A stretch of DNA of 64,000 bases from Dipteris shenzhenensis (Eukaryota). The DNA lies in assembly GCA_047967505.1 (NCBI GenBank), contig CM106538.1; one strand, given 5' to 3'. The translations under genes and the position numbers were made by a program. The notes beneath the pieces were generated by a model, which made no database searches, was not told where the DNA came from, and saw only the letters and a list, made by a program, of their open reading frames with translations. Below are positions 997 to 51,937 of this stretch, in pieces (the stretch's first letter is position 1; each line of letters opens with the position of its first letter).

Positions 997-3900
997 GTAC
1001 CACCACGTCAACTTGAAGGAGCCACACTCTCTAGCATCCTAAGTTGCCCTGTGTCAATTCCCATCGGAATCCTCCTATGGAATTGTCCCAATCTATGGGA
1101 GAGTTTCAAAGGATGGATTGAACTCACAAATCCCCCTCCACCTATGAACGACATCGAGGATATCACTGTGCGGATGGGTGAGAGAGATGACATATGCAAC
1201 ATTACTATGCCTTTGATCCACAAGCCATATAATGAAGTCAAAGCCATAGTGGATGGTGGAGCAGGTGTAAATGTCCTATCAAAGGAGTTCTATGAAGAAT
1301 GGGGTCTCCCACCAATGCAAAAGGCTAATTTTAACATACACCTTGCCAATGATTCCCGGGCTAAACCCTTGGGAATAGTGAATGTTGTGTCCACAAAGAT
1401 CGCAAGAGTCTACTTTTCCTTTCAATTCAAAATCTTGGATCTCCCCAAAAAATCCTATCAAATCTTACTGGGACGTCCTTGGTTACAAGAAGCATCAGTC
1501 CTCCATGACTGGGGAATTGATAGACTAACAATCCAGAATCGCGACATTGCAGTCAGGGTGAATGTGGGGACAGGAGCTATTAAACCAATTGTGCCTAGAG
1601 CATTGGATGACACATCTTCAACAACAATCTCAAGCAAATCAGCTTTCTTGCAATAGCATGCCATAGCAGGTGACTCATAAAGCAATGCCAATAACTGGAT
1701 ACAAACATTGGCAACCATCCACAACTGACATTCATTAGATCCCATCTTCTCACAGATAGATGCTTAGTGCTACAGGTAGATCCTCCACTCCCACATGAAG
1801 AACTAATCGATCTAGAGATGCCATTCTTTATGGCTAAACTCGAGTGGGATAATGAACCTGAAGAAGATACCCATACCAATGATGACTCAGATTTTCCTTG
1901 GGACCTTGAAACAAATGTTGAGAATGCTAAAATTGAAGGTCAAATCTTTGATAATGACTTAGACATTCTGCATGCCCTAATGGCAGTCGAGCTCCCAAAA
2001 GTTAAACCTCCAAAGTTGAATAATAGCAAAAGATCCCACAAGAAAGCTGGAGGAAATCGCAAAAAAGCCAAGGCCGCGAGCACTTCAATGAATTCGAACA
2101 AGTCCAATCAAGGATCATCGAATTGTACCTTGCAAAGTTAGCTCCCTCAAAATCAGAACCACTGCCTCTTGAATGGTCCCTTGAGGGACTGGAAGGAGTA
2201 TGCGCAGCAAATGAACCCTTGGCAACACCTTACCAGTGGAAAAGTTACCCCACAGTTCCCAACGTAAGAAGTTTTGAAAGTATAAGCCACATATGCAAAT
2301 GAAGCTCAATCAAGAGACTTCAGAAAAAGAAAGTCAAAATGAGCCTAACAAATTGGTAAATGAAACGATGCAACCCAGTACACATGGCATATGTCAGGCT
2401 AGTTCAACACCATCAAAGGTCAATCTTCGAGAAGTGCCGGAATACTTCAAGAATTACACTAGTGGTAGTGCACCAATAGCAATGCCAAGACCACTAAGAG
2501 AATCTGAAGTTCAAGAAACTGATAGCATTGGAGAAACTCCAATCTATGAGGGACTGGCAAAAACACGCACAATAAACCTCGCCCTTGAAGGGGAGGAAGA
2601 AAAACTGGTTTTCATTGGGAAACAACTTCGACAAGAAGATGAAACCAAACTCAAAGCACTCCTAATGGAATACCATGACTACCTTGCATGGTCATAGAAA
2701 GAGATGAAAGGAATTTCACCAAAAGTGGCAGTACACACAATACCTATAAGGGAAGGTGCTCACCCTAAGGTATGTGGACCTTATCGCACAAATCCTAAAT
2801 ATGGCACCATGGTTTATGACGAGCTGGAAAAACTCCTAGATGTCGGATTCATCCACGAGATAGAGCACATTGATTGGGTTTCACCCATTGTCATTGTGCC
2901 TAAATGCAACAAGAAGCTCAAAATATGCATAAACTTACAAAATATGAATGCTGCCACAATTAGGGATCACTATCCCCTACCTTTAACAAAAATACTGTCG
3001 GAAAAGTTGGCAACTTAAAAAATATATAGATTCTTGGATGGCTTCAGTGGCTATAACCAAGTGCAAATCGCTCCTACAGACCAATCAAAGACAACATTTC
3101 TATAGAATGGGGTATTTTTACAAATAGAGTCATGCCATTTGGCCTTTGTAATGCCCCGGCCACATTCCAGCGAGTCATGTTCATAGCTTTCAAGTCATTT
3201 TTGAATAAGTTTTTACAGGTGTTCTTGGATGATTTTTGCATCCATTCAAACAAACAAGACCACTTCAAATGTCTTGAAGCAGCACTAATCAAATGCAGGG
3301 AGTATGGCATTTCCCTAAATCCAACAAAATGCCAGTTCATGGTCACCCACGGAGTTGTTTTGGGACACATCGTCTCTCAACATGGGATTGCAGCTGACAT
3401 GGATAAAATCAAAATCATCATGGAATTGCCTCCCTACAAATTCCAAAGGTGTACAGGTCTTTATGGGACATGCTGGCGATTATAGAAGATTTATATTGTG
3501 GTATGCCATGATAGCTAGACCACTTTACAAATTATTAGTGGATTTCTTATGGATCGAAGAGTGCGACCAAGCCTTTGAGCTTCTAAAGTGGCGCCTAATC
3601 ATAGCTCCCATCCTTATATCTCCCAATTGGGATATTGATTTTCATGTTCATACTGATGGATCCAAGTATGCAATTGGGAGTGTGCTTTATCAACCTGGTG
3701 AACATAAGAAAGACTACCCATTCTACTTTGCCAGTCGACAACTCAATGATGCAGAGATCAACTATACCACCATAGAAAGAGAAGCCCTAGCAATGGTGTA
3801 TAGTGTCAAGAAATTTTGGCACTATCTACTGGCAAATGATTTTGTCTTCTACACCGACCATCAAGCATTGCTTTATCTTGTGAATCGTCCTTGTACAATA

Positions 3901-5330
3901 GGAAGAATAACCAAATGGCTCCTCTTGCTTCAAGAATTCAACTTCAAAATAGTGGTCCGCAAAGGTGCCCAACACTACATTACTGATCACATGTCTCATG
4001 TCAAGTCGAGAGAAGAAGCCACTAGAGTAGAAGATGACTTACTAGATGCCACACTATTTCAAATAGATGCTGTTCCAGAGTGGTGTGGAGATATCATTGG
4101 GTACTTGATGGTAGGAAGACCACCCCCTGAAATGAGAGCAGTAGATGCTAGAAAATTGATTCTAAAGGCTGCACCCTATCAACTCATTGTAGGACAACTG
4201 TATAAGATGGGCAAGGATCATATTTAAGAAGATGTGTAACGCCTCATGAGATCATGCCAATCCTGAGTGAAGTCCATGAAGGCATTGTAGGAGGACACTT
4301 CCAAGGGGAAGCCACAGCAAGAAAAGTTCTCCTCACAGGCTACTGGTGGCCAACGCTATGGGCAGATGCCTATGAATATGTAAAAGGTCGTGATGTATGC
4401 TAATAGACTACTAAACCACAACACAAAGACTTCAATCCCCTAACAATAGTTGTTGCACAAAAACCACTTGAAAAATGGAGGATTGACTATGTGGGTCCCA
4501 TACATCCAGCAGCAAAAGGAACACAAGCATGCTACATCATTGTGGCCATTGATTACTTTACAAAATGGGCTGAAGCTAAAGCAGTCAGAAAGGCAGATGC
4601 TAAAAGCATAGCAAGATTCTTATATGAAAATGTGATCACCTGATTCAGATGCCCCATTGAAATTGTGTCAGATAGAGGCACACATTTTGTCAATGAGGTA
4701 ATCCAAGAACTCTTGTCTCATTTCATGGTAATCAATACAGAAAGCACACCCTACTATCTCCAAGGGAATGGACAGGCTGAATCCACCAACAAAATAATAT
4801 GCATTATCCTCACCAAGGTAGTAGAACCATAGCATTCTGATTGGGCAGAGAAACTGAATGCAGCCTTATGGGCATTCAGAACCACATTCAAGGTCAGCAC
4901 AAGGAACACACCTTTTCAATTGGTGTATGGCCTTGAAGCTATGGTCCCACTCGAATTTGTAATACCAAGCCTATGCATATCAGTATAGGAATGCATGGGA
5001 GACCATGAATCCTTGCAAGAAAGGCTCAATTAGTTGAGGAAGCATACAAAGACAAGATTAGTCGCCTACCATGCCATGACAATAGAAAAATGTGGAAGAA
5101 AGGCATGGTTTGATATAAATTTGAAAGCTAAAGACATTAAGGAAGGCGACTTAGTCCTGTTATACAATGCCAAAGTACACAAGGGGAAACTAAAGTATCT
5201 AGGTCAAGGACCCTACCGAGTACGAAAGATGAATCCCATCAAAGCTTTGCTGCTAGAAACATTGGATGGAGTCCAATTCAACACAATAATAAAGGGGAGC
5301 TGATTGAAGCGCTACTACAACAACATGTAA
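997..5330 (+). pseudogene. Gypsy pol (protease-RT-RNase H-integrase), many stops and frameshifts
   Basis: IVDGGAGVN protease; MPFGLCNAPATFQ and FLDD (RT); TDGS..IG, NY..EREALA, TDH (RNase H); GPY motif in the integrase C-terminus. Confidence 0.95.
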
Positions 5331-5522
5331 GCCATCCTCGACAAAAACAAAGATTTGGGAAACCAAGTCTTCCTTAGGATTAGATTGTATCATGAGCACT
5401 CACTTGCATATGTACGTCTTCGCAAATATAGGTAGCATCAATCAATTTTAAGCTAGGGCTCAGAAGTGATGCCTGAGTTCTAGCTGCCCTATGAAAACCC
5501 CAGTAATAAAAAAAGCATATAG

Positions 5523-5554
5523 CATTAGGAAAAAAGGGAGCTCATTTTGGGGCC
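5523..5554 (+). repeat. Left TIR CATTAGGAAAAAAGGGAGCTCATTTTGGGGCC
   Basis: Reverse complement of 12820-12851 with 2 mismatches. Confidence 0.92.
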
Positions 5555-6013
5555 TTTTACGGTTTGGAAAAATAAGCTCTCAACCAATCAATAGAAGGCC
5601 AACGTAACGTTGAAAATTCACGAAAATAAGAGAAAATAGAAAAAAGAAACAATACTTTATGTAAGTACAAGCGTGCTACATTAATGAGGAGATTGGTTTT
5701 TTATTCGTAGAAGATCTTTGGACAAGAAGATAGAATCTAAACTGACATTTTATCTGACAAGATCCTTCCCGCTTCCACCTTCCTTTGAATTTTCAAATAT
5801 TGTGCCGCCTTTCGTGCGAAAGGTCTACCATTCTACACCATTGCCTCATTGTGCAACTGCCTTCCTTTTCCAAAACTGCTCCCTTGATCCTGTTTGGTGT
5901 AGAGTAAGATGTTTCTCGTCAACTGTCTGTTTGCCCACTTTCTCTTTCTTGAAACTTCAAATTGTTATCTTAGTTACATTACTTTGCTATTCTTACAGAT
6001 TCAGAAAATCTCC

Positions 6014-7453
6014 ATGGTGAACCAAAACCACGGCCGTTCTTGTGCAAGACGCTCTGTGGATGATAATGCTACGAAGGCAGAATTATACCAAACATCCTTA
6101 CCCCGTCGACCTGCTTCTTCTATTTCGTCGGTAGAGAATTCAAGTACAGTCAAAACAGAAGGAACTTGGGAAAGGTTTAGTGTTTCGAAAGGAGCATGGG
6201 TGCTCATGCAACCTAGCAAAAGAAAAAGACCCCAGACAAAAAACATTTTCTTGGCATCGTGGAAGGGAAGAGTACGAGATTTTAAAATCACCAAAGGGAA
6301 GATATCCGTGAAAGAAGTTTTGATTCAGCACGTGTACATGCATAAAGAACTTGTCTTGCGAGACTATCCAAAAAATCTTCCGCAACACAGGCCTAATTGT
6401 ATATTTTTCTATTGTGGTTTTTTCCTTCATGAGGTGTATGGATTTTTAAGATGAAGCTTTCTCTCTTAACTTATTGACATTCTTGTGTTGTTTTATTTCA
6501 GATTTATATCCTTCATCGTATGAGACATGGCAAAACATCGATTGTATTTTGGGATTTATAGATGTTCTGCATGGATCGATAGGAGAACAACAATACCAAG
6601 GTCGATGTGCAACAGAGCTAGCTCAATCGGGTATATTTTTTACTGATCATTTTTATCAGTTGCTGGACAAAGCTAACACACATGGTGTATTAATAAAACA
6701 AGACCTTCCGGCATGGAATTCGGTGGATTGGCCTCACCCACATTCTAGTGTTACAGAGGCATATAGGGCGAAGCTTTTTACAGAAGTACAGAAAGCTCTG
6801 AGGCCCAATATTGCCACTAGGATAGTAAAAATTTCTTTGTGCATGCCTCTCACAGTTTTTGTAGACTTGTTTAATACCTTTCCAGTAAAGGTTTCAAAAA
6901 CAATGCTCACAGTTAAAGCAACAAATTCGGCATGCATGCCACAATTTTTGGATAAAGGTTGGGATAAGAAGACATGTAGTTCAGTGTTTTGTGAGGTGGT
7001 CCAACCTTCTATGCAACTGAAGTACATGGTTGCATCACAAAATCTTATTTTCTCTTTTTATTACAAGCGCAGTCGAATGCTAGGTTCAAAGCTTGTCCCA
7101 ATGGACCAAGATGAAGAGTCGTTTGGTGCACAAAATAAACTTATTGATATTGATGTTCTTGAGAATGGTGATGTGGTAGCCAGTATCTCGTTAAGAGAAT
7201 GTTGCTCCCTAGCTCAATTACGCAGTGACATTCTGTTTGAGACTGAAGGTTCTATCTCAAACGACTTTTTATTTATCTACAAGAACAGAAAGGTACACCA
7301 TCTGATTTATCCTAGTCTCTATAAGCATTGCTATTAGTTTAATTTACCACTCTAATTCATATTGCTTTTTTGCAGTTACTCAGAAGAAGAGAGAGCTCAG
7401 TTAAATGCAAAGACATAGAAAATTTTAAAATTGAGATCACACATACTCCATAA
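6014..7453 (+). CDS. Spliced ~417-aa protein: N-terminal BAH-like domain, unknown middle domain, C-terminal ubiquitin-like (beta-grasp) domain
   Basis: Exons 6014-6398, 6502-7292 and 7376-7453 are joined by GT-AG introns that keep frame with no stop. BAH-like pattern: WVLM..WKGRV..VLIQHVYMHKEL..PNYLYPSSYETWQNIDCILGFIDVL. Ubl-like pattern: SLAQLRSDI..DFLFIYKNRKL..RESSVKCKDI. Domain names are from pattern recognition only. Confidence 0.7.
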
Positions 7454-7537
7454 AGAAAGGTTTTGTATTCAATCAAGTAAGATTTTGTACAGAATTGTTT
7501 AGCTGAATCTGTAGAACATATTTCTAACATCCATTTT

Positions 7538-9632
7538 CTATTTATGTACAGTTTCATCCAGAGGCTGCTCTACATTTTCTGGAGGATCTTCTCTCTGCTG
7601 CTCCATCCTGTCCGTGCTTCATCCTGTCTCCTCCACTGCCCCAGAAGCCTCTCTTTGCTGCTTCTCCACCTTCTCCTCAACATCAACAGCAGGTCTTTGC
7701 TCCTGTGTCTGCTCCTCCTCAGCACTCTGTGATTGCTCCTGTGGCTTCTGGTCCTCAACATCAGGTGCTTCATATGTGGGATCAAGGTGTATGACACCTT
7801 CTTGTACTTTAGAGCTTTCACCCAGCTCCACAGTAGCTGCTACAATAGGTTTGGGGGAGGCATAGCTCAAAAACCTCAAAATTGTATGAGCTCTAAAATT
7901 ATGTACATAGTTGGGGCTGAAGCTATCCTCTTTCATCTGCAATGGCAGAGGATAATTTAGAACACTTTGTATCATTATGAATTATATTCAAGCTAAATGA
8001 AAAGTATTTTTCCTTACCAGATCTGGCTGTTCCTTTTCAAAGTAGCTTGAAAGTATATATTTTGCATTGATCAGCACCCTCCATCCACAACTACTTGAAT
8101 CATTTTGTTGTGGTGTCTGTACAGTTAGAAAAAAATGTTAGAAACTGTGAGCATCAGCACAAAACAAAATTATTCAATAAGTTCAAAGACATAGCATTTA
8201 ATAGACCTTTTACCTGTAGACTTAATGGCTCTATTGAATCCAACAGAGAGACATTTGGAGGACAATGATCCAATGCATCTAATAGCCTTCTAATACAACT
8301 GCAATATGTATAATTTAGTTAGTATGGTATCAAAATAATGAAGTTTTGAGTTCAGAAAGCACACACAGTAGTTACAATTTCAGCTCTCTGTGTGTGTTTT
8401 TTAGAGAGTTGAATAGAAAGCACTGCTTCTGCTAGATGTCAATAGACACAAAACTCCAGTGGTCACTGCATAAGGAAAAAAGCATAAGCAAATGAAAGGC
8501 TACAAGAGTTCCCAATATTAAAGAAGAATCTTAAAAGAAGTAGTCACCCACATACCTGCTATGATATGGAAGTAGCAAAATGTCAATTACTTCAAAATTG
8601 CAGTGTTTGAACCAGCTGGAAATACTCATGGGAGTCTCTTTTGCATCTCTTAATCTAGAAGAAATGGCTGGATCAACAATATGGACTGTATGTTGTACAG
8701 AGGGATGAAGCCAGCTTCTCATCATGCTGCATAGGATCAGAACATAATTAGGGTAGGTTATAAAAGAGTTACAAGGAGGATTGATTTGCAAAAAATGTAA
8801 AATCTAAAGACACTTACTAGAGCATTGCAAGAATGATAGTATCTGAGCAATACTCATTCTTGTTAGCCAATGCTGCTAAGCATTGTTTTGTCAAATCAAA
8901 ATCATTGACTGAAACTTCATCCTCAATATGTACAACTACATCAGGGCCCAGCTCCTTCAACCTTCTATGTATGTGTAGCTCCTTCTTTCCAGTTTCCACA
9001 TCTATCACAGATTTTGTTTCTTTTACTTGCTGCTTCAGTGAGTCCTCATAAGCAGCCTTCCCTCTGGTGTTCTTTGAGTGTGTTACCTCAACAACCTTTA
9101 CCTCATCAACCTTGACCTTCCTTGTAGGTGGAATTAGCAATATATCTCTCATTTTGATGTCCTGCCATTCCACAGGATGAACCAGCTTGTCATATCTCCA
9201 TCTCACTCTGGACAAAGTGTTGAAATCTTTGGCCATCAAAGTCACCCTGTGAGCATGGGCTGCTACAAGCATTGCATCCTCAAAATATTTCTCCAGGTAA
9301 TCCTCTGCCATTTCCTGCAAGGAAAGAATGGCAGTTCTATTCCACCTGAACCCAAGGTTCCAACTGTCACAAATTTCTCTCACCAGTCTTTGAAAGGGTG
9401 CTTTGGGTATTGCAAAACCTATGGCTTTCTGTTGCCTCCTTATTTCCCTAAGCACACCTGCACCCTTATTCAATCTTTTGGCCTTTTGCTTGAGCAAGCT
9501 CATTGGCTTACCCTTCTTGCCATGTGAAGCTCTTCCCTTTGGAGGAACACTAAACTTCTTGGAACCTGTCCCAGCTGCTGTTGCTGCTGGTCCTTTGCCA
9601 ACTTGCCTTGCAGTTGATTTGGTTCTTGCCAT
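7538..9632 (-). pseudogene. Histone H3-like domain fused to a Ulp1/C48 SUMO protease plus acidic tail (6 coding exons; premature stop in exon 3)
   Basis: Exons 9632-8818, 8726-8556, 8465-8376, 8298-8214, 8116-8018 and 7936-7619 (or 7538). All five introns are GT-AG, 77-97 nt, and phase-compatible. H3 motifs: ARTKSTAR, LREIRRQQK, PFQRLVREI, LQEMAEDYL, HAHRVTLMAKD. Ulp1 motifs: DILLLPYH, DHWSFVSID, FNSL, PQQNDSSSCG. In-frame TAG at 8434-8432. Confidence 0.88.
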
Positions 9633-9689
9633 CACTCTGAAAAACTGCATACAAAGGATTGGAAAGAGATCAAAGACATGAAGAACATG

Positions 9690-10600
9690 TTTTTACAAAG
9701 AAAAGGCAATCACAGGGGTGGTAGAAGACAAATAGAGAAATTTGCAATAAAATGCGATATGAGCAGTTTGGAATTTCAAACAGGTCCACATCGCATTTTG
9801 CTGCAAATTTTTTAAATGAAATGCTGGTGCACTCCTACAGTGATTTCTATGTTTCTCCAACCAAATATAGTATGAATGGAGGTCATTCAAGAAGATCACA
9901 TGCAAATATCACACTTGAAGATCTGCATTCCTTCAGTGATTTCTCTGTCTTGGTTTGAGCCTATGCATTTCCATACAGGATGTAATTTTTCTATTTTAGG
10001 CAAGAAGATTGCAGAGGCTAAGGGGAGTCACAAAACCAGACATGTTCTCATTAAGAAAAGGCAATTACAGAGGTGGAAGAAGCCAAATAGACAAATTTAC
10101 AATAAAATGCGATATGAGCAGTTTGGAATTTCAAACAGGTCCACATCGCATTTTGCTGCAAATTTCTGAAATGACATGCTGGTGAACTTCTACAGTGATT
10201 TCTTTGTCTCTCCAGCCAAATACAGTATGAATGGAGTTTATGCAAGAAGACTACAGCTATGGAAGTCAAAAAACCAGAACATGTTCTCACAAAGAGAAGG
10301 CAATCACAGGGGTGGAAGAAGCCAAATAGAGAAATTTGCAATAAAATGCGATATGAGCAGTTTGGAATTTCAAACAGGTCCACATCGCATTTTGCTGCAA
10401 ATTTTCTAAATGACATGCTGGTGCACTCCTACAGTGATTTCTATGTTTCTCCAACCAAATACAGTATGAATGGAGGTTAGGCAAGAAGATCACATGCAAA
10501 TATCACACTTGAAGATCTGCTTTCCTACAGTGATTTCTTTGTCTTGGTTTGAGTCTATGCATTTCCATACAGTATGTTTTTTTTCTATTTTAGGCAAAAA
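9690..10600. repeat. Tandem ~240-355 bp repeats, each containing a ~72-bp imperfect palindrome (3 copies)
   Basis: AATTTGCAATAAAATGCGATATGAGCAGTTTGGAATTTCAAACAGGTCCACATCGCATTTTGCTGCAAATT at ~9739, ~10094 and ~10333. Confidence 0.9.
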
Positions 10601-10830
10601 GATTGCAGAGACTAAGGGGAGAACCCATTGTTCCTGACCTGGAGTCTATCTGTGGATGTGCTGTGCTGCTGAGGAGTAATCTGTGCTGAGGATGATTCTG
10701 TGCTGCTGGACAAGATGCTGATGCTGCAGAGTATGGAGGTAGGGAGGCAAGAGGGCAGAGACTGGAGGGCAAGAGTTCTAAAACAGGATACCACAAAGAA
10801 GTGCAAAATGAATTAAAGAATCACTAAATC

Positions 10831-10910
10831 CCACACGTGTGGAATCTAGTCGTTTTTCACACGTGTGGATGGGACCCAGATCTCTTGGAGTTTGAAATCT
10901 GGCACGTGTG
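10831..10910. promoter_or_regulatory. Cluster of three G-boxes (CACGTG) and a GGGACCCA site; candidate (bidirectional) promoter
   Basis: CCACACGTGTGG at 10831-10842, CACACGTGTG at 10858-10867, GGCACGTGTG at 10901-10910, upstream of the H3-Ulp1 gene. Confidence 0.45.
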
Positions 10911-11329
10911 AAAGTACACTTTATTCCTTGGAACTTGTGCCATTCATTATTTCATCATGAATACCACAACCACTTTTCCCTCCCCTGGATTCCAATCTCT
11001 CATCCCTGCCACGACTCTCTCCTGATCCTTTCTCTCTGATTCTTTCCTGCCCAGCACACTCCATCCAGATTGCAGCCTGCCTGAAGACAGTACTGCCAGA
11101 TCTCCAGGTTACCTAGAGTGCAAGGTTCAAGCTAGAGAAAGAGCAGGAGATTTACCAGTGCAACTCAATCAGCATGGAAAAGGAAAAAAAAGGTCAGAGT
11201 TCTAGTTTGGTTTCAATGTTTTTCAACATTTATTTCTTCCATCCATTGGATTTTTTATGTCCCAATGTCTTCACTCAGCTCCATCCTTCTTCCACAATGT
11301 GGTAAATCACCCAAAAATTAGATTGTAGG

Positions 11330-11791
11330 TTGATATGAACAGAAACAAGAAATTTGCAACAAAATGCGAGGAGAGTGGTTTGGAATTCTCTAAACAGCCC
11401 ATATCGCATTTTGCTGCAAATTCCTGTTGTGGACTCCTTGCTCATGAAAATTTTCATTCATTCCATTTTTTCTCTTGCATATGAGAGCATAGTGTCCAGG
11501 AATCACTGAAATGAAGCAAGTGCTTGATTTGACATGCACATGAACAGAACTTGAGAATTTGCAACAAAATGCGAGGAGAGTGGTTTATAGTTCTCTAAAC
11601 AGCCCATATCGCATTTTGCTGCAAATTCCTGTTGTTGACACATTCCTCATGAATAGTATCACTCATTCCATTATTTCTCTTGCATGTGAGATCATAGTGT
11701 CCAGGAATCACTGAGATGAACCAAGTTCTTGATTTGACATGCACATGACCAGAATTTGAGAATTTGCAACAAAATGCGAGGAGAGTGGTTT
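11330..11791. repeat. Second array (~205-bp unit) with a variant of the same palindrome; third copy truncated
   Basis: AATTTGCAACAAAATGCGAGGAGAGTGGTTT...ATATCGCATTTTGCTGCAAATT at ~11351 and ~11556; partial copy at 11761-11791. Confidence 0.88.
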
Positions 11792-12450
11792 GACTATATT
11801 ATTCAGCACCTCCATTCTTATTTTGCGACAATCAACGAAATAGATATAGTCTGGAAGAGAGCCTTTTTGAGTATACAAAATGATAAATTTCAATCTAACC
11901 TTGCTTCCTGAATTCGTCGCTTGCATCCACCAGTCCCAGCCTTCAAATTTGCAATGTTTTTAATCTTCCTGCTACGTTGTCTGTCTCCAAGCACGGTTCT
12001 CTTCTTTCTTGCTCTTGTCAATTCTTTTTTACTCTTTGAATGCTCCTCGATTTCATTCTGCAACTGCTGCTCCAATTTTGCACGAATGGCTATCTCCTCC
12101 ATCTTGGCCCCCTTTTCTTGTAGGTACATCATTTTATACGTTTCCGCAAATGCAGATTGCGCTGAAATATAACCAAGAAGTCCATTTTGTCCATCGCCGG
12201 CAAACCTCAGTAATGTGGTGGGATTGACAAATGGAGGTGTAGAGTTTTTTACTTGACATTTTGGATATATGCTTCCGTCGCACCATAAGTCAATATGTTG
12301 AAGCCCTTCTCTTCTCATATTTTCCCGCTGTTGAGCATTCAGCACCGTATCCTTTCGTCTTTTTTGTGCTGGAGCATATTGTTCTTCCAAGTCGATGTGA
12401 AGATGGTGTAATCGCTTCTTCTCAGATAGTGACTCACTAGTATCGGCCAT
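11792..12450 (-). pseudogene. Truncated ORF starting inside the right TIR end (coiled-coil/basic); possibly the N-terminus of the lost transposase
   Basis: 186-aa ORF (12450-11890). About 100 bp past its stop the sequence abuts a truncated repeat unit at 11791, which looks like a deletion junction. No catalytic motif seen. Confidence 0.45.
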
Positions 12451-12819
12451 TTTTTGTGCTCCTCAGGTTGCGAAGTTTGTTTTTCAATCTCATAGTCGTT
12501 TTGTAACATGAATCGTGGAAGTGTGGCGGTATCCATGTGAATATTTTGAAAACTTGCAATCACTAAGTTCAGTGATGGACTCTTAATGAAAGACCTGCAC
12601 ACGTCGGCCAAAGAGATGCGGAATCTTTGGTAAACAAAAAAAAATCTAAGAGGATATTTAATACAAAATCGTGTTAGTCAGACAAAATATTATCTTATTC
12701 CTTTTTGAATTGACAGTTCTGTAGTCCTTACTGACAAATCTGAGCCACGTTTCCGTATTTTACTATTTTTGAGGTCTTTTAGGAGAGAAATAAATCAAAA
12801 AATAGTGAATTTCTTACAG

Positions 12820-12851
12820 GGCCCCAAAATGAGTTCCCTTTTTCCCTAATG
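12820..12851 (-). repeat. Right TIR
   Basis: GGCCCCAAAATGAGTTCCCTTTTTCCCTAATG, reverse complement of the left TIR. Confidence 0.92.
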
Positions 12852-13212
12852 TTAGTCCATACCTAGCTACTAGGTCATGTGCACTCATACGCTTTCTCTT
12901 AGACACATAGATGATTGCATGAATAATTATACCACACACTTTCATTTCACACTCTCAAAGCATGTATAAAAATAAGATTTCTCACACACACACAAAAAGG
13001 TCATACCAACATGCCAACACCACATGCACATGGATGCAGGTTTAGAGATGCCATCACTAAAGAGGATGCACAAAAAGAGCCCACTGCCTCAACCATGAGA
13101 CCCCCTCTAGAGTTCACATCAATCTACATCCTCTCAACCATGGCGACCATAGCCATTCATGGTCCAACGCGATAGCTCCGAAGAGGATTTAGTGGATGAC
13201 CAAGAAGAACAA

Positions 13213-14726
13213 ATGCCACCCTAGTCACCAACGGCCTACACAGCCATTGACGGGGCCTAGTCATTGGAACTTGTTTGGCCACCCACATCGACTTATGCTC
13301 TTTCCTAGGAAGCAACATCTTACTTAGAGCAAAGGGGTCTAGCCAGTTTGCATGAGAGCCTAAAATCCTTGGAGGACAGTTCTACAATGACCACATACAT
13401 CAAGGACTTTTTCCATTCTTACCACTCCAACAATGCAAAGGTTGGCAATACGGTACAATCACTGTACATCAGAGCCCACTAAATATTATCCTCGATAGTA
13501 CAGTCATTGAAAGGGATTTCTCACTGCCAACATAAGGTGCCAAATACCCTAATCGGCCTGCTGATGCAAAGTTTATCAAAGTACAGTGTCTCCTCACCAA
13601 GGGCACACTAATCCATAGAGACGGCATATTGCTTTGCACAATCCTTGACCATCGCCTCACGGAAGTAAGACAATTCCTATCCACAATCCTGGGGGTTAAG
13701 TGTGGCAAGAATCGATCCCTTCCACTCCGCACATTTGTTTTGTTGAGTAGGAAGCTAAAACAAGACTGGGTCCAGCACTTAGTCATCTTCTTTACAAAGA
13801 AACTAGATGGTTCTTTAGGCCAAAAATGTAAAATTCCACACTTATTGGCTATAATCATAAAAAAAGAACCACAAGAAAGAGAAATGACTCTGCCCCATGA
13901 CTCTAGCCCAGTCACCAAAACCAATGAGGAGTTGGACATACCTTTCTCACCAGTATGGGAGCCGTCACCAACTTCTCCTACTATAACATTGATAGGTGCA
14001 GTTGCCTTAGAAGAAATACCTATTCTGGAGGCTAGGATTGCAGAATTGCCTCAAGAGATGCTACAACTCGGTGCACAATTGCAACCAATATATCTCTAAC
14101 AACAGCAGCAACCAGAGCTCGAGGCAAGATTGGCACTAGAACCTGAGGAAAGATTGGCACCAAAGCCTGAGGCTACATTAGTACTAGAACCACCCATCGA
14201 CGCCATGCCAGTAGATGAGCCACAAGGGGAGCTAGTGCCAGATCAACAGTATGACTATTGTACACAAGGGACTAAAATACCATTGGAACAACCTCCCCCA
14301 AGTACTATAGAATCATCGGGCTGGCTACATGGGCACCATTTGTATCAGCAGTATCGCTAGACCTCATCACTGTCTGTCATTCTCCAACATCAAGCTAGCC
14401 AGATGATCCAAATGTTAGAACTATTCACTAGCTTGGCCAAGGAGGAATATGCAAGACAATTGGAAAGACAGACTGCAATAGAAATTGAAGACCAATTCCA
14501 AGCAATCGCCATAGAGGTCAAGGCAGTTTGGCACAGATAGATGAGAAGGAGGTAGAAGAAGTGCGCATGAACCAAGCTCTCCAAGCTCAAGAGAAGGCAG
14601 TGAGGGATGTGACCTCCAACCTCCACCAAAGTCAAACACGGCTGACAATAGTAGTACAAGCAATGGCAATCCTACATACCTACTATAACTCCTTGACATT
14701 TGCACATGCTCAACAGATGGAGGTAG
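13213..14726 (+). pseudogene. Gypsy copy 1 extra 3' ORF (5' part), decayed
   Basis: Homologous to 52470-53973 (LPLRTFVLLSRKLKQDWVQH). Confidence 0.85.
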
Positions 14727-14983
14727 TGACAAAATATGAAGAGGGGAGAGGAGAAGAGTGGAGATGAGGAGAAAGGGCACAGCTAGAGAGCACACCACAA
14801 ATGACTAACTGTACACTAGATTTAGTTGAAAAAATAGAATATATACAAACCCTTTTAGGGTTAGGGCTAGGGGATCTAACCCTTTCCTTCATAGCACTCT
14901 ATAAGGTTAGTGCTATGCACATATGATCACGTGATGGTGCTATGCACACATGATCACATGATGTTGAGCGTGAACTCTCAACA
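14727..14983 (-). repeat. Copia A 3' LTR
   Basis: TG..CA; near-identical to 25448-25696 and 29637-29893. Confidence 0.93.
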
Positions 14984-15885: not shown

Positions 15886-16372
15886 TGGTATTAGAGCCTT
15901 GTTCGTGGTAAGGAGCTCAAGAAAGCAAGCCAAGTTTGTGGTGTCCTGGTAAGAGGACCAGTGTTGCTTTCCTATTTCGTGTTTGGGAGCAAATCTCTGC
16001 AGGTAGCACAGCCAGAAGTGCAGGAGTGCACTGTTTCTGATTTGAGGCCGTTTCGGGCCCCGTTTTGAAGGCGGAAGTTCTTCGCAGGCACTCAGAAAAA
16101 GGCCCTGTTTTTCGCTGTGCGCGGCTAGTCGGTGAAAAGGTGCCACAAAAATTGCATTGTATGCCTGCGTGCAGAGATATTGGGAGTTGCAGATTCATGC
16201 TTGTTGCCTGTTGATGCAAAATCGTCACTAGGAAGTGACTGTGTGGTGAAATACCACTTTCGTCAGTGTTGCAGATCTGCCCCTGTGAGGCTTTTTGCAG
16301 AAGTTTTGCTATTTGCCCTTGTGAGGCATTTGCTGTGTTTACAGGTTGCTGTTGCAATTCGTGATTTGTAAA

Positions 16373-19300
16373 ATGTCTGAGAATCTGTCTACCATTGTCA
16401 GTGAGAAGCTTGACAAGAACAACTTCCAAGCATGGAAGTTCAGGATGACAAACTTCCTTATGGGAAAGGGAGTTTGGGAGTACATCAGTGGTGAAACTGC
16501 AGAACCAGTTTTGGGTGCTGCTCCCACTCCTGCTGAATTGAAGGCCTTTAAAGAATGGCATGAAAAAGCCAGAAAATGCCTGTATTGGCTGTCTATTAGC
16601 ATTTCAGATTCTATGATTGTGCATATACAGGATGTAGAGACGCCTAAGGAGGCATGGGATACATTGGTGAAGCTGTATAGCACAAATACCAAAGCACGAA
16701 AGATGCAGCTAAAGCAGGAGTTGCACAATGTGCAAAGGAAAAATCTGAATATAAATGAGTATTCCTTGAAAGTGAAAGGCCTTGCAGATTCTCTTGCCTC
16801 CATTGGAGCACCTGTTGATGATGAGGACTTAGTGTCCGTGACCTTGAATGGTCTTGGGAAAGATTATGCACAGTTTCGGACATCCATTGGAGTCCGTGAA
16901 ACATTTCTTGATTTTCAGGAACTTATTGCTCTCTTGCTGAGTGAAGAGCAAAGGAATGGTGGTTCAGCCACCTCAACTTCTCAAGAGACTACTTTCTACT
17001 CGAATACAGGTAGAGGCAGAGGTAGAGGAAGAGGCCGTTTTGGTGGCCGTGCAGGAAATCAGAACCAACAGCAACAACAGGAAAACCAGTCCTATGGAGG
17101 AGGACGTGGTAGTTCTAGAGGCAGGGGGAGCCAAAGAGGCCGTGGTTCATGGCAAAGGAACCAGCAAGTAAATAGTAGCACAGAATGCTATTATTGTGGA
17201 AAGCCTGGACACAAGAAGAATACATGCTATAAAAAGCAGAATGACATCAAAAGTGGGAAGTTGCAGCAAAGCAACTATGCATCATCAAGTGGGCATGGTG
17301 ACGACAGAAATGAGCACCTTTTTGTGATGCAGCATATGGTTAACTCCATGTCAGGAGATGCTGCAGCTTGCAATGATGTTTGGTATGTTGATTCAGGTGC
17401 CTCTAACCACATGACCAGTCATGGTGAGTGGTTTCATGATGTTAGAAATTTGGATAAGCCAGGTTATGTTGAAACAGGTTATGATACTGTGTACCCAATT
17501 ACGCAGGTTGGTAAAGTGCCATTGGCTATGCAGGATGGCAAAACGAAGTACTTGCCAGATGTACTTCATGTTCCAAAAATCACTAAGAACCTGGTTTCAG
17601 TTGGCCAGATGGTTGAGCAAGGTCTGCAGGTTAGATTTAATCCTGATGGATGCTTTGTTGAGGACTTGAAAAATAAGTGCCGCTTGGTTGCGAAAGGCAA
17701 CAAAAATGGCAGAATGTTCACCTTGGATGTTGATATGCCTGAGGTGAAAGCTGCTATGTTTGCGCATGGGAGAGGTGTCATTGCAGATATTGAGATATGG
17801 CACAAGCGCATTGGGCACGTGAATATACAAAGGCTGAAATCTATGCAAACGAAAAACATTGTTGCAGGTTTGCCTAAATTCAGAGTTGAGGGAATGCAAA
17901 AGGTATGTGAAGCATGCCAAATGGGTAAGCAGGCCAGACATGCATTTCCCAAAAATGCTAAGGTGAGCAGAAGACCTTTGGAAGTGATCCATTTAGATGT
18001 TTGGACAACCAAAGCTGCTTCGATTTGTGGATGCCATTATTATGTGACGTTTATTGATGACTACACTAGGAAGGTGTGGATTTATTTTATGAAGCACAAA
18101 AGTGAAGTGTTCAGCCATTTCAAGGCTTTTAAGGCCATGGTTGAAAAAGAGAAAGGTGTGCATATTAAAGTGCTAAGATCTGATGGAGGGGGAGAGTACT
18201 TTTCAGAAGAATTTTGTGAATATCTGAAAGAACAGGGAATTCAAAGGAAGTACTCATGCAGGTCTACCCCTCAGCAGAATGGGGTTGCAGAAAGGAAGAA
18301 CAGGCATATTACAGAAGTAGGACGGGTGATCCTAAATGAGAAAAACATGCCTGATTATTTTTGGGCTGAAGCAGTAGCAACTGCTGTTTATATTATGAAC
18401 AGAACTCCCACTGCAGCTGTCCATGGCATGACGCCTGAAGAAATGTATACAGGCCAAAAACCAGATATTTCTCACTTGAAGGTATTTGGTTGCATAGCTT
18501 ATGTTCATGTTCCTGATGAGAAGAGAACAAAGCTGGATCCAAAGGCAGAAAAATGCATCTTTATTGGATATGCTCTGCACCAGAAAGGGTATCGCTATTA
18601 TAACCCTTCCACCCGCAAAATGCAAGTGAGCAGAGATGTTGTTTTTGATGAAATGAGCAGCTGGTATGCACCAACTGTTATGGTAGGAGATGCAGATGCA
18701 GGAAATGGGAATGCTGCAATAAATGCAGAGCAACAATCTCAAGCCTTGAGTGGACCCAGAGAGTCCTCTACTAGTGGATCTAATGCATGGACAGGGACAT
18801 TGAGATATAGTGAATCGTCACATGGCAGCCCTGATAGTGTTGTGCAGGTATCACATAAGGGAAAAGAAAAAGTAGACCATGCTCCAGTGTTTGATGTGTT
18901 TTCTGGTAGCTCTCATGTTGATGGAAAGTCAAGCGGCTCTGAAATGAGCCTTGATGAGGAACTTGGGATTCCTTCTGTTGTTACACCTGGTGCAAGGAAA
19001 AGCAGGCATGATTTAAAGACTCCTACAACTGATCCAGTTGTACGGAGGTCCACTCGTATTAAGTATCCAGTTGACAGGCTGAGATATGATGGGTATACAG
19101 CACATCACTATGCTTATATGGTCAAGGTTCTAGAGGAGCCAGAGCCCACATGTTTTGAGGATGCAGCAGGGCATAAAAATTGGGAAGCAGCTATGGATGA
19201 AGAGATGGCTGCCTTGGATGCAAACCACACTTGGGATTTGATGCCTTTGCCTCATGATAAGAAGGCTATTGGCTGCAAGTGGGTTTACAAAGTAAAGCAC

Positions 19301-20728
19301 AATGCTGATGGGTCAGTTAGCAGGTACAAGGCAAGATTGGTTGCCAAAGGTTTTGCACAGACATATGGAATTGACTATGAGGAAACTTTCAGCCCAGTTG
19401 CAAGGATGGCAACCGTGAGAGCAGTAATTGCTATGGCTGCTGCAAAGGGATGGTCTTTGCATCAGATGGATGTGAAAAATGCCTTCTTGCATGGTGATTT
19501 GCAGGAAGAGGTTTATATGATGCAGCCAGAAGGTTATGAGGATAATTCACACCCCGATTTTGTATGTAGGTTGCGCAAAGCCTTGTATGGCTTAAAACAG
19601 GCGCCGAGGGCATGGTCAGACAAGATAGGGCAATATCTTGTCACTATTGGATTTCAGATTTCCAATTCAGATTTTTCACTTTATGTGAAAAGGACAAACA
19701 GAGGGATTGTGCTTATAGTCATCTATGTTGATGACTTGATTATTACAGGTGATAGTGATGCAGACATTAATGAAGTGAAGCTACTGTTGAAGCATAAATT
19801 TGAGATGAAGGATTTGGGAGAGCTGCGTTACTTCTTGGGCATTGAGGTTATTAGATCCCCGAGTGGGATATGGCTGTTGCAAAGGCAATACGGTTTGGAC
19901 ATGCTGTCCAAATATGGGATGACAGGCTGTAAGCCTATTTCTGTTCCATTGGAGCAGAATGTGAAGCTCAATGCAGAGACAGGTGAGCTTCTTGAAGATA
20001 TTACTATGTACAGGCGCATAGTAGGTAGCTTGATTTACATGACTATAACCAGACCAGATTTGAGCTATGCTGTGGGGCTGGTAAGTCAGTTTATGCAGGC
20101 ACCGAGGAAGCCACATTTGGATGCGGCTAGGCACATACTGCGGTATGTGAAGTCCACATTGCATTATGGACTATTTTATGAAGCTGGGTGTGCATTACAG
20201 GTACATGGATACACAGATGCTGATTGGGTTGGTAGTGTCTCAGACAGGAGATCTACTAGTGGTTTTATGTTTTCCCTTGGGAGTGGTGCCATCAGTTGGA
20301 GTAGCAAGAAGCAGCCAACAGTTGCCTTGTCGAGCACAGAGGCTGAGTACAGGGGTGCAGCAATGGCTGCATGTGAGGTAGCTTGGTTACGGAAGCTACT
20401 TGCAGATATGGGACAGTCAATTCATGCAGCAGTTGTCATTCATTGTGACAACATTAGCAGCATCATGCTTGCTAATAACCCAGTTTATCATGCTAGAACG
20501 AAGCACATTGAGGTGCATTATCACTTTGTGAGAGAGAAGGTTCTAGCTGGTGAGATTAATCTTGTCTATGTCAGCACTGAGGAGCAGGTGGCTGATATTT
20601 TTACGAAGGCATTGGGTACCGAGAAGCTTCGCAGATTTAGGAGCTTGCTTGGTGTACGTGAGATGGATTTGAGCTTGAGGGGGAGTGTTGAGATATCAAG
20701 CTCTACCCCCGATATATCTCCTGGATGA
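16373..20728 (+). CDS. Copia gag-pol polyprotein (gag, CCHC, protease, integrase, RT, RNase H), uninterrupted, 1451 aa
   Basis: Single ORF from ATG 16373 with CYYCGKPGHKKNTC, VDSGASNHM, FIDDY/RSDGGGEY/NGVAERKN, YVDDL, DADW, HCDN. Confidence 0.97.
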   Translation: MSENLSTIVSEKLDKNNFQAWKFRMTNFLMGKGVWEYISGETAEPVLGAAPTPAELKAFKEWHEKARKCLYWLSISISDSMIVHIQDVETPKEAWDTLVKLYSTNTKARKMQLKQELHNVQRKNLNINEYSLKVKGLADSLASIGAPVDDEDLVSVTLNGLGKDYAQFRTSIGVRETFLDFQELIALLLSEEQRNGGSATSTSQETTFYSNTGRGRGRGRGRFGGRAGNQNQQQQQENQSYGGGRGSSRGRGSQRGRGSWQRNQQVNSSTECYYCGKPGHKKNTCYKKQNDIKSGKLQQSNYASSSGHGDDRNEHLFVMQHMVNSMSGDAAACNDVWYVDSGASNHMTSHGEWFHDVRNLDKPGYVETGYDTVYPITQVGKVPLAMQDGKTKYLPDVLHVPKITKNLVSVGQMVEQGLQVRFNPDGCFVEDLKNKCRLVAKGNKNGRMFTLDVDMPEVKAAMFAHGRGVIADIEIWHKRIGHVNIQRLKSMQTKNIVAGLPKFRVEGMQKVCEACQMGKQARHAFPKNAKVSRRPLEVIHLDVWTTKAASICGCHYYVTFIDDYTRKVWIYFMKHKSEVFSHFKAFKAMVEKEKGVHIKVLRSDGGGEYFSEEFCEYLKEQGIQRKYSCRSTPQQNGVAERKNRHITEVGRVILNEKNMPDYFWAEAVATAVYIMNRTPTAAVHGMTPEEMYTGQKPDISHLKVFGCIAYVHVPDEKRTKLDPKAEKCIFIGYALHQKGYRYYNPSTRKMQVSRDVVFDEMSSWYAPTVMVGDADAGNGNAAINAEQQSQALSGPRESSTSGSNAWTGTLRYSESSHGSPDSVVQVSHKGKEKVDHAPVFDVFSGSSHVDGKSSGSEMSLDEELGIPSVVTPGARKSRHDLKTPTTDPVVRRSTRIKYPVDRLRYDGYTAHHYAYMVKVLEEPEPTCFEDAAGHKNWEAAMDEEMAALDANHTWDLMPLPHDKKAIGCKWVYKVKHNADGSVSRYKARLVAKGFAQTYGIDYEETFSPVARMATVRAVIAMAAAKGWSLHQMDVKNAFLHGDLQEEVYMMQPEGYEDNSHPDFVCRLRKALYGLKQAPRAWSDKIGQYLVTIGFQISNSDFSLYVKRTNRGIVLIVIYVDDLIITGDSDADINEVKLLLKHKFEMKDLGELRYFLGIEVIRSPSGIWLLQRQYGLDMLSKYGMTGCKPISVPLEQNVKLNAETGELLEDITMYRRIVGSLIYMTITRPDLSYAVGLVSQFMQAPRKPHLDAARHILRYVKSTLHYGLFYEAGCALQVHGYTDADWVGSVSDRRSTSGFMFSLGSGAISWSSKKQPTVALSSTEAEYRGAAMAACEVAWLRKLLADMGQSIHAAVVIHCDNISSIMLANNPVYHARTKHIEVHYHFVREKVLAGEINLVYVSTEEQVADIFTKALGTEKLRRFRSLLGVREMDLSLRGSVEISSSTPDISPG

Positions 20729-31135: not shown

Positions 31136-33454
31136 AGGGAAAATTTTATTGTGAGCTTTTTAATGCGAGCTTTTTTTGAAATTTATCAAAGTTTGCGAGC
31201 TTTTTTAGAGTCCCATAAAAAAAGACCTACTAATCAAAAAATAACAAAGTAATTACTTATCCTGTATCTATGGATTTATCCTAGGAAATACCAAAGCAAT
31301 TAGCAATTCTATGGACTAAAAAAGACAAAGCTATTAATCCAAGTAATTTATATTGCAAGTCAGTAACAAATGATATTATATATAAAAATGAGCCATCACA
31401 ATACTAGCAAATATGTATTATGCATTCAAGTCTATGGATTGTTGCTAAGGCAACAAAGGTTTAATGAAACTTCAAGTAAGGATATGCCAATTTTCATGTA
31501 GTTCTATTATTTGAAAAGTCCAAAGCAATTAGTAAAATGTTCCACATTAAGAACATTGTGTTGGCTCAACACAACAAATTTTGAGCAAAAAATAGTGTCA
31601 CATCAAAAAGTGGGCTATCATAATACCAACCAAGTTTATATTTTGCATTCAGGTCTATGGATTGATCCTAGGTCAGCTAAGAACTGATGAAACATCCATA
31701 GTGGAAAGGGTTGGTTGATGAATAAGCATGTGTTGATTTGGATCCAATCCCAATACACAGATGAAGATGTAATAGATATGTTTGCATGCCAGGTAAGGTT
31801 TTTGACCCAACTCTCTTTTTTGAAAATTCGGACATGTACACATGGGTTTAGTCTTGATGTGCACATCGTAAGACATCCGAGCCTTGTCAGACCTTGTTGT
31901 TCTCAAATGGAAAATACTATGATGAAGAAGCTCCACTGTCATTTCTCCCATGACAACAGCGTGCATAGATTGAGCACTAGCTATTCTTTTTGTAGCCTCC
32001 TTAGATATGCCATGCCTCCATTTTGTGGTTCTTACCAATGTGTGTTGAGCTAAATTCCTTGGTATGGATGCCGACCCTCCATGTGCATCACAAAAATTAG
32101 TTGGCATCGGTGCTGATCCTTGAGGTACATTTGGTGTCGTCCAATTTACATGGGGTTGATCCACTATTTGCAGTCTAAAACCAGCCTTGATGAGATTGCC
32201 TATCTCCTCACTTGTGATGTTTGTTTCCACATCCACCTTCCACACAGATGGACGTTCAGGAACATGCATGATATTATGATCTAGGTGCCATGTATGAGTT
32301 ATATCATCATTACAAAACCACATCCATTGTGCTTTTGGTCCTCCTACCCCTGGATGCCACCGCTCAGAGTAGAAATAGGGTGCCACCACTCCTTGTGAAC
32401 TACTTTGTATATATTGATTACACTTAACCTTTCCATCTATGAATCCAAGACACTTCACTTTAGAGTTTTTGGAGGTCCTTCAAATTTCCCAAAAGGTACG
32501 GTGGATAGGCACCTCAACAATAGAGAGGCCACTAGGAAGGCCTCCTTGTCTCATAGGTGGAGCCATTGGGGCTTGTTCTCTTGTGGGTATGATCTCATTC
32601 TGAGCTCCTTCAGCTTCCCCTACATTGCCATGTTTTTTCCATGATGTTTTTGTAGACTCCCCTTGAACTCCACCTTGCTCCATTGTGGAAGCCCTAACAT
32701 CCACTGGTTGGGTATTACCTTGTGGTTTTATTAAATGCCAATCTCCACCTTCTGTCTCGAACCTAATTTTTCTCAGTCGCCCTCTTTGCTTATGATCTCT
32801 GATCTCCACCATCACATACCCTGGCTTATGTGAGGTGTTTTCTAAATGTATACTTGATGACTTGCTTCTCTTTCTTTGGATTGTTACCTTATCCCCATGT
32901 AATGGTCTTGGTTCTTCATACATTGGTGTCCCTGCAACTATTTCATGCACCATTTGTGCAACTTGTGCTAGTGAAGGTGTACTCCTTGAGGCCACTCTTT
33001 GCATCAAGGCTTCCAAGTTAGGACCATCCCCAACATGCCTTCTAATCATATATGCATATTGTTTGGCACTTTGTAATAGGGCATTTGCCATGTCCGAGAT
33101 GCAACAATTATATAATTGTATCTTTGTCTTAAACCCTTCTCCTACTAGCCAACTACCATGAATGCTTTCAGCTACATTTGACCTTGGAGTGTGTGCCTCC
33201 TCCAAGGAACTCTTTGTTACCTGTGGTTAAAAAGGAGGTAATTAGATTGGCTTATTACATTTATTTAGCTTACTATATTTATCTACAAAATACATACCGC
33301 GCTCATGAGATTTTCCCAATGGGCAATCCACACATCCCACCAACTAAACCATATGTCCATTGAAGGAATGTCGGCCTCACGGACATGTCCTGCATGCCAC
33401 CACTTCCGAATGAGCTTTGCTTGGTTGGTAGCTTCTTGCTTTGTCTTACATAAT

Positions 33455-42334: not shown

Positions 42335-42989
42335 GACTAGCGTCTCAAGTAGTGAGTAAACATACGTAGGTATGTGTAAAACAACAAACTACTTCAAACT
42401 TTCACGAACATAACACTCAAGGGCAAGGAGAGTAAATTTTTTTCCCCAATTCTAGCCAAACATATCAACCCCAAACATCAACTTTGGGTTACTACCTTAA
42501 GAAATTTTCTTAATTTCTTAAATAAAAGCCACATGATATACAATCAGGCTAGGTAGTGGACACGGATGCGTAGAGCTTGCAATTTTGATCATTTTACCTT
42601 TTTATAGAAAAGCAAACCGAGCTCTCCATAAAGAGTTATGGCTCGGGAAGAGTTTAGGGTTAAACCCTAACCCTAAACCCTAAACCTAAATCAAATCCTA
42701 TAAAAACCTACTCCACCCCCTCATTCTTCATCTTTCACTTTTTGCCTCCATTCTCTTCTTCATTCCGAGCCCCACGCAAGACACTCCTCCCTCTCCATCG
42801 ACCACCCCCTTACTCCTATCCTCGCAATGTAAGTGACATCGAGCCCTTCTTGCAGCGATGACCTAGCCTTCCACCCACCGTCCATTGTTCTGCAACAATC
42901 CCGTTACATCGAGAAAGACTTGGAGAGCATTCAGGTGACCACTTCTCCCTGCTTTTCGATTTCCGTCTTTCAGGTTTTTTGCTCTTTTT

Positions 42990-51600: not shown

Positions 51601-51937
51601 TACAGAGACAAGACTAGTCGCTTATCATGCCATGACAACAGAAAAACGTCGACAAAAGGCATGGTTTGACAGGAATCTGAAAGCTAAAGACATCAAGGAA
51701 GGCGACTTAGTCCTGTTATACAATGCCAAAGTACACAAGGGAAAACTGAAGTATCTAGGTCAAGGACCCTACCGAGTACGAAAGATGAATCCCATCGGAG
51801 CTGTGCTACTAGAAACACTAGATGGAGTCCAATTCAACACAATAATAAACGGGAGCCGACTGAAGCACTACTACATCAACACGCGAGCCATCCCCGACAA
51901 AAACGAAGATTTGGGAAACCAAGTCTTCCTTAGTTAG
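45682..51937 (+). pseudogene. Gypsy gag-pol with several premature stops and a frameshift
   Basis: LPKYNGKGDP gag; four CCHC-like knuckles; IVDGGAGVN; LDGFSGYNQ and FLDD; RNase H; HHCC zinc finger; DYVG/SDRG integrase; GPY. Confidence 0.95.

Follow-up and report, generated by a model that had tools for sequence, protein, structure and literature searches.

A histone H3 gene joined in frame to a Ulp1/C48 protease, very probably carried by a DNA transposon, in Dipteris shenzhenensis

Can a single gene encode both a histone H3 and a cysteine protease of the type that acts on SUMO and, if so, what carries such a gene and what would its product do? The question is raised by a 64,000-nt stretch of DNA from Dipteris shenzhenensis (assembly GCA_047967505.1, contig CM106538.1), which is referred to here as the window and whose coordinates are used throughout unless another contig is named. 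A sequence-only reading of this window had proposed that a minus-strand gene at 9632-7538, here called the fusion gene, joins H3 in frame to a Ulp1/C48 protease. In this study, the gene was compared with protein families, solved structures, homologous proteins and related loci, and the proposal was upheld: exons 2-6 encode a product similar to the C48 region of a homologous protein, and three related loci carry open spliced frames. We are nearly certain that the H3-C48 gene is a real fused gene, and it is very probably the cargo of a transposon. Comparison of the copies establishes that an intact version would be one polypeptide of ~550 residues, comprising a diverged but complete H3, an extension with a linker and a C48 protease.

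The gene model comprises six exons and five GT-AG introns in a single reading frame on the minus strand, opening with an ATG read in the sequence at 9632-9630. Exon 1 (8818-9632) holds the H3 tail, the histone fold, a conserved post-fold extension and a linker and runs on into the protease for ~45 residues, and exon 2 (8556-8726) continues the protease domain as far as the ...PYH motif. The catalytic His (HWS), an Asn at the site of the catalytic Asp (FNSL) and an in-frame TAG all lie in exon 3 (8376-8465); exon 4 (8214-8298) is placed by the splice model; exon 5 (8018-8116) carries the oxyanion Gln and the catalytic Cys (PQQ...CGW), and exon 6 (7538-7936) completes the protease domain and adds an acidic tail, closing with the final TAG at 7540-7538. 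The introns (8817-8727, 8555-8466, 8375-8299, 8213-8117 and 8017-7937) are 91, 90, 77, 97 and 81 nt long, and each begins with GT and ends with AG behind a pyrimidine-rich stretch. The apparent stop of the open reading frame (ORF), a TAG at 8819-8817, overlaps the donor GTAAGT, and exon 1 ends at 8818, two bases into a codon (a phase 2 donor). The joined frame has exactly two in-frame stops, a TAG at 8434-8432 and a TGA at 7621-7619, and it measures 525 codons to this TGA and 552 to the final TAG. Furthermore, annotated Adiantum genes have their exon borders at the same places. The overlap of stop and donor, the five short introns that extend the frame and a total of ~525-552 residues had all been read beforehand, and their coordinates held when checked; the Ulp1 motifs that had been named (DILLLPYH, DHWSFVSID, FNSL and PQQNDSSSCG) are present in the spliced translation, every one. 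As a predicted frame, the spliced H3-C48 gene is confirmed.

Might the fusion be an annotation artefact, an H3-like gene that merely adjoins a separate Ulp1 gene? Such a reading draws on the automatic ORF calls, which end with exon 1 in 13 of the 20 aligned family proteins, at no more than two residues from one alignment column, and on the fact that the splicing is supported entirely by comparison between sequences. What it does not accommodate is the N-terminus of a SENP-type domain lying in one open frame with the histone fold, so that the fusion is independent of any predicted splice. Nor does exon 2 behave as the beginning of a gene, since it has no start codon at its beginning and continues the frame of exon 1. 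In addition, the phase 2 donor of exon 1 (G, then GTA) is conserved at the same place in four of seven related loci as well as in the window, and a CpG-free domain, described below, extends across the six exons and breaks off at either end of the gene. The probability left to an artefact is negligible.

The histone part is complete. Exon 1 matches the Pfam family Histone (PF00125) over residues 38-139 with an E-value (E) of 1.6e-26 and 93.4 bits against a cut-off of 26.4, and it aligns over residues 1-132, the start of the tail included, with an H3 from locus L008 (67/146 identical, 46%; E 1e-33). P0151, a homologue from Adiantum nelumboides, matches solved H3 chains over residues 1-129. The fold is conserved as a whole in the family, and four positions, which correspond to H3 R116, T118, D123 and R131, residues that make contacts with DNA and the partner H3, are invariant in 20/20 family rows. 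At the start of the tail the first eight residues are near-invariant (Lys4 in 16 of 17 rows and Arg8 in 15 of 16; alignment A2), and beyond this conserved start the rest of the tail drifts across the family. The K9-equivalent position varies, being Lys in 6, Arg in 5, Val in 3, Gln in 1 and Trp in 1 of 16 rows; a reading of the tail as one without the K9 position was dropped, as Lys occurs there in those 6 rows and in a near copy. The fold is followed directly by a family-specific extension that has two invariant positions and that spans, together with the likewise family-specific linker, ~130 residues. Altogether, the C-terminal addition after the H3 part is large, at ~400 residues.

It is the conservation of the fold as a whole, including the four positions invariant in every row, that points to tethering in chromatin. 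We give the incorporation of the protein into chromatin through its H3 part, as suggested by this conservation, a little less than an even chance. The same part could instead serve as a bait or adaptor which mimics H3 outside nucleosomes and brings the protease to H3-binding chaperones, readers and writers of silencing marks. Such a role would suit a tail whose start is strongly conserved and whose remainder drifts, the two invariant positions of the extension right after the fold and the very size of the C-terminal addition. However, the entire fold is conserved, H4- and DNA-contact positions included, which exceeds the needs of a tail mimic, and H3 with a fluorescent protein tag at its C-terminus is still incorporated into chromatin. 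The bait is for us an unlikely explanation.

The C-terminal part has diverged far more than the histone part and is, by homology, a cysteine protease of the Ulp1/SENP type (family C48, clan CE). P0151 lies above both Pfam cut-offs (Histone, E 2.6e-23; Peptidase_C48, 25.6 bits versus 20.7, residues 256-402), and the product of exons 2-6 aligns with the C48 region of P0151 at a pairwise E of 3.6e-21 (29% over 129 residues). When the protease domain of P0151 was used in an Atlas language-model search, 28 of the 30 matches fell in Peptidase_C48 sets. Furthermore, P0121, an Adiantum protein without a histone part, matched only the catalytic domain of SENP2 among solved structures (4/4 matches, E 7e-4 to 9e-4), and this alignment starts in the stretch that corresponds to the end of window exon 1. 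The His, Gln and Cys are kept in 5/5 sequences (the window, L001, L005, L006 and P0151), and the His aligns with the His-Trp motif of SENP2. At the catalytic Asp site, 7/7 members have Asn (the window, L001, L003, L005, L006, P0151 and P0121), which lies under the Asp of SENP2 in the alignment. The substitution, already noticed as an N in place of the usual D in FNSL, is thus a family trait and not a lesion of the window copy.

This substitution bears on whether the protease works. A domain made inactive by the Asp-to-Asn exchange could have been kept to bind SUMO or a different ubiquitin-like protein, and both the presence of Asn in all seven members and the weak Pfam scores would fit such a binding role. 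A dead domain need not retain the His, Gln and Cys, however, and all three are retained in five of five sequences; moreover, a clan CE protease that has a His-Asn-Cys triplet and works, pS273R of ASFV (African swine fever virus), has been recorded in the excerpted text of one paper (PMC9866604). A dead protease is improbable in our estimation, and the retained motifs make an active one moderately likely.

The window copy itself is dead and degenerate, to judge by the TAG at 8434-8432 and the TGA at 7621-7619 that break its frame. The first of these minus-strand stops (8432-8434) falls, in a gap-free alignment, on a Gln of P0121, in agreement with the earlier suggestion that it was probably a CAG; the second (7619-7621), which had been put forward as possibly premature, reads TGG (Trp) in a related contig of DNA run X1, where C replaces T at 7619. 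No frameshift was seen in the window fusion gene, and the neighbouring gene 2, described below, is fully open, so that this copy would have died recently. A search for intact copies had also been suggested, and they exist: L001, L005 and L006, from assembly JAEIGA01, have the same exon order, consensus splice sites and spliced frames with 0 stops.

How widely does the family extend? With exon 1 as query, an exhaustive protein search returned 9057 proteins (E ≤ 0.001), a number in keeping with a histone, and among the best 150 matches about 40 run past the fold into the same extension. A tree was built from 85 fold columns; 144 proteins of up to 420 residues were entered and 136 kept, the eight with fewer than 80% of the columns filled being left out. 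One clade of 39 rows, supported at 100 (ultrafast bootstrap, not fully settled) and 99 (SH-aLRT), takes in every one of the 29 rows having the extension motif, and its remaining 10 rows are truncated or variant. As far as such a tree can establish it, the family is of single origin, old and diversified, and it includes genes of Adiantum. The members with a named source all come from that genus, eight proteins from A. nelumboides and two from A. capillus-veneris, and one of the A. nelumboides members is fused by annotation to retroelement sequence. Seven contigs of assembly JAEIGA01 (L001-L007) carry family members, of which the six that can be compared show 34-58% mutual identity. The closest relatives of the window copy are fragments at 76-88% identity, and DNA run X1 yielded 20 pieces in identity classes of 2, 8, 8 and 2, i.e. 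several diverged copies in one run. Two further alignments (A3 and A4) were not used, as single-exon pieces were misplaced in them (exons 2 and 4 in A3, exon 3 in A4).

The substitutions between copies establish, at the level of codons, that the fusion family is under purifying selection. Between the window and near-identical contigs of two DNA runs there are 94 differing positions, 40 of them listed; the 31 listed differences in exons divide into 20 synonymous and 11 non-synonymous ones, for ~347 and ~1312 sites, respectively. Within the histone fold (codons 61-146), 11/11 listed differences are synonymous. Compared with a related contig, exon 2 has four differences that are synonymous and one that is conservative, and intron 1 differs from the near-identical contigs by one indel and four substitutions.

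What carries the gene is apparent from the sequence around it. The fusion gene lies inside an inserted element of 7,329 bp (5523-12851), a DNA transposon with terminal inverted repeats. Self-comparison of the window shows that a gypsy retroelement is split into halves around it, 997-5522 matching 47540-52077 (90.9%) and 12851-14728 matching 52077-53975 (86.1%); as the paralogue is continuous at 52077, the gypsy copy at 997-14728 was interrupted by the insertion of 5523-12851. The left inverted repeat (5523-5559, plus strand, beginning CATTAGG) and the right one (12815-12851, minus strand) are each 37 nt long, and the element ends correspond to an inverted-repeat pair (I6) of 40 nt that is 88% complementary. 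A degenerate 32-nt pattern of the terminal repeat has two matches in the window, only at the element ends, and 0 in shuffled sequence.

Besides the fusion gene, the element contains gene 2, a doubtful gene 3 and tandem repeats between the two minus-strand genes. Gene 2 (6014-7453, plus strand; exons 6014-6398, 6502-7292 and 7376-7453, the second intron being bridged by homology) is a convergent partner with an open frame of 417 codons. It has a counterpart in L001 (3658-4533 of that contig, minus strand; 45% identity, E 6.6e-73), which likewise follows the fusion gene downstream, on the other strand. Since the convergent arrangement of gene 2 and the fusion gene is shared by the window and the unrelated L001, the two genes appear to travel together. 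Gene 2 gave no Pfam match and no Atlas match, and a search for viral relatives found none, there being no relative among 192 pattern-matching stretches in viral contigs; by eye, its C-terminal end loosely resembles a ubiquitin-like domain. The gene 3 candidate (11890-12450, minus strand) is an open frame of 186 codons with a high content of Lys, Arg and Glu; it belongs to no Pfam family and has no counterpart among the fetched loci, and it may not be a gene. In L001 the fusion gene and gene 2 are separated by a frame for an NIF/FCP1-type phosphatase (2808-3368; Pfam E 1.6e-17), which has an Asn at what we take to be the second Asp of the DxDx motif; no counterpart of it was found in the window.

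The base composition of the fusion gene is unusual as well. It contains one CpG where 85 would be expected, with normal GpC and raised TpG and CpA. The CpG-free stretch (7613-9755, 2,142 bp) coincides with the transcription unit, introns included; it is the longest such gap in the window, and in 20,000 random placements no gap reached this length. No comparable depletion marks gene 2 of the same element (CpG observed/expected 0.57). An equal void, with CpG-dense sequence immediately upstream, is present in L003, L005 and L006, whereas the fusion-gene body is not CpG-depleted in L001, L002 and L004. Upstream of the window gene lies an array (9741-11779) with 11 copies of a 17-nt motif inside tandem repeats of 239/355 bp and 205 bp; ten copies form inverted pairs ~50 nt apart and one is unpaired. 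The 11 matches, versus 0 expected, are all within this array, and 11 of the 16 CpGs between 9633 and 11800 fall in motif copies, which have the appearance of protein-binding sites. None of the 80 fetched loci contains the motif. The void may reflect a long-term, methylation-driven loss of CpG in a transcribed body; alternatively, it may reflect selection for a body unable to hold CG methylation.

What would such a protein do? The H3 part would pair with H4 and follow the route of histone deposition, by which the protease would become fixed in chromatin. There it would strip chromatin proteins of SUMO or of a ubiquitin-like modifier related to it. Such deSUMOylation would weaken the SUMO-dependent silencing of the element, by a logic like that of the Ulp1 accessory genes of plant Mutator-like elements. 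According to excerpts from two papers, heterochromatin is supported by SUMO in eukaryotes, plants among them (PMC8131101; PMC6084981). The anti-silencing role, drawn by analogy, is offered tentatively and has less in its favour than incorporation into chromatin. Weighing the established and the inferred parts together, we hold this to be the best overall explanation, with chances slightly better than even. In its most far-reaching form, the transposon would encode an H3 variant with a SUMO protease that is deposited in nucleosomes and deSUMOylates the silencing machinery, the CpG-free body and the CpG motif array keeping the gene expressible; this combination is rather doubtful.

Several results weigh against this explanation. 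A Pfam check recovered Histone in exon 1 and, by way of P0151, Peptidase_C48, but window exon 3 alone scores 19.3 bits (E 0.0011) against Peptidase_C48, just below the 20.7 cut-off, and the other four downstream exon pieces, scanned piece by piece, show no Peptidase_C48 match; P0013, at 15.8 bits, and P0121, with no Pfam match, are likewise under the cut-off. Activity could be reduced or lost through the exchange of Asp for Asn throughout the family, the splice model is derived from comparison, and the variable K9-equivalent position, with Lys in only 6 of 16 rows, permits no simple account of the tail. In addition, the transposon context is direct for the window copy only. No target-site duplication was found at the junctions when lengths of 2 to 9 bases were tested; in the gypsy paralogue the flanks ...ATAG and TTAG... 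adjoin each other directly, and no base is duplicated. Neither Pfam, applied to gene 2, gene 3 and other frames, nor Atlas recognised a transposase in the element, and this copy of the element may be non-autonomous. Given the lack of a target-site duplication, the fusion cargo could be a captured host gene.

On that account, the family would be one of host or long-domesticated fern chromatin genes, and the window copy a dead duplicate picked up by a transposon. The purifying selection on the sequence would be natural for a host gene, as would the lack of a recognised transposase in the element; capture, too, has precedents, as the sections retrieved from two papers describe plant DNA transposons commonly capturing genes (PMC13317346) and fungal hAT elements capturing histone H3 (PMC6710886). 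Other features fit a host gene poorly. A single assembly holds deeply diverged lineages (34-58% identity among the six comparable JAEIGA01 loci), one Adiantum species has eight named genes, and several variants occur within one small run. Furthermore, the partner gene accompanies the fusion gene at two unrelated loci, and one annotated copy is fused to retroelement sequence. A host family is, in our view, quite improbable. The original claim of an H3-Ulp1 fusion has stood. Beyond that claim, the gene is not a lone host gene: it is multi-copy and deeply diverged, and in the window it is the cargo of a terminal-inverted-repeat transposon in a gypsy element. If the explanation in its most far-reaching form is true, the element would be a self-contained system by which mobile DNA rewrites host chromatin. 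The protein would, in addition, offer a natural reagent in the form of a nucleosome-directed deSUMOylase, and the proposal is directly testable, since intact copies are present in fern genomes already sequenced.

The surroundings of the element are rich in retroelements. The window has Ty3/gypsy pieces at roughly 1-5.5 kb and 45.5-54 kb, and both gypsy copies have an additional open frame downstream of pol, of up to 567 codons (52524-54227 and 13536-14099), that is without a Pfam family. A Ty1/copia polyprotein (16325-20725) runs for 1,467 codons without interruption through gag, integrase and reverse transcriptase, and its element is possibly still active. On the minus strand at 31673-33226, two adjoining open frames of 268 and 248 codons have a Cys/His pattern reminiscent of the SWIM zinc finger of Mutator-type transposases; they match no Pfam family at E up to 0.1. 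A low-complexity, G+C-rich block at 42800-44800 has a strong strand bias (GC skew -0.73) and reads in several frames as Pro/Ser or Gly/Arg/Glu repeats.

How does the fusion compare with known systems? Full-text literature searches found no H3-protease fusion described as one selected protein, although lists of transposons in the supplements of fern genome papers might hold the element. Core histones fused to an enzyme are very rare, and to our knowledge no H3 joined to a protease has been described. A related architecture is that of macroH2A, in which a core histone fold is followed by a large C-terminal non-histone domain; it is encoded by an H2A host gene and its macro domain binds ligands, whereas the present fusion has H3 instead of H2A and a protease instead of a macro domain, and is borne by a transposon. 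With the Ulp1/SENP proteases, of which SENP2 is the best solved match, the fusion has in common the domain order, the His-Trp motif, the Gln, the Cys and the N- and C-terminal motifs. It differs from them in having Asn for Asp, in its distance (E of about 1e-3 to SENP2) and in carrying a histone where they have an N-terminal localisation region.

Transposon genes that counter silencing are known mainly from the VANDAL elements of Arabidopsis. Those parts of the source that were seen report an anti-silencing action of the VANDAL KIU Ulp1 genes on related elements (PMC13317346). As these excerpts describe them, the Mutator-like Kaonashi/KI-MULE and VANDAL KIU genes resemble the fusion gene in being DNA-transposon cargo in which a C48 domain is joined to a non-protease part. 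The partner of their C48 domain is VANC-like and binds DNA motifs, whereas that of the fusion gene is a complete histone H3, and the element described here, unlike theirs, has 37-nt inverted repeats and no target-site duplication. Pfam scans of 5523-12851 found neither a Mutator transposase nor a VANC-like domain, the VANC sequence itself not having been compared. Ginger1 transposases likewise have a Ulp1 domain, at the C-terminus, fused to a transposon protein (PMC2836005); in the retrieved text, the partner is an integrase-like transposase and the hosts are animals, whereas no integrase-like domain was found in the present element in Pfam scans. H3 captured by hAT elements in Dothideomycetes is a further case of an H3 coding sequence multiplied on a DNA transposon (PMC6710886), but those copies, as far as the excerpt describes them, are plain H3 without an enzyme fusion, mostly inactivated and for the most part not under selection. 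Transposon-borne Ulp1 domains and transposon-captured H3 are thus each already known, in these partial sources; in the fern family they are joined, and by using a histone for targeting, a mobile element would gain a novel means of acting on chromatin.

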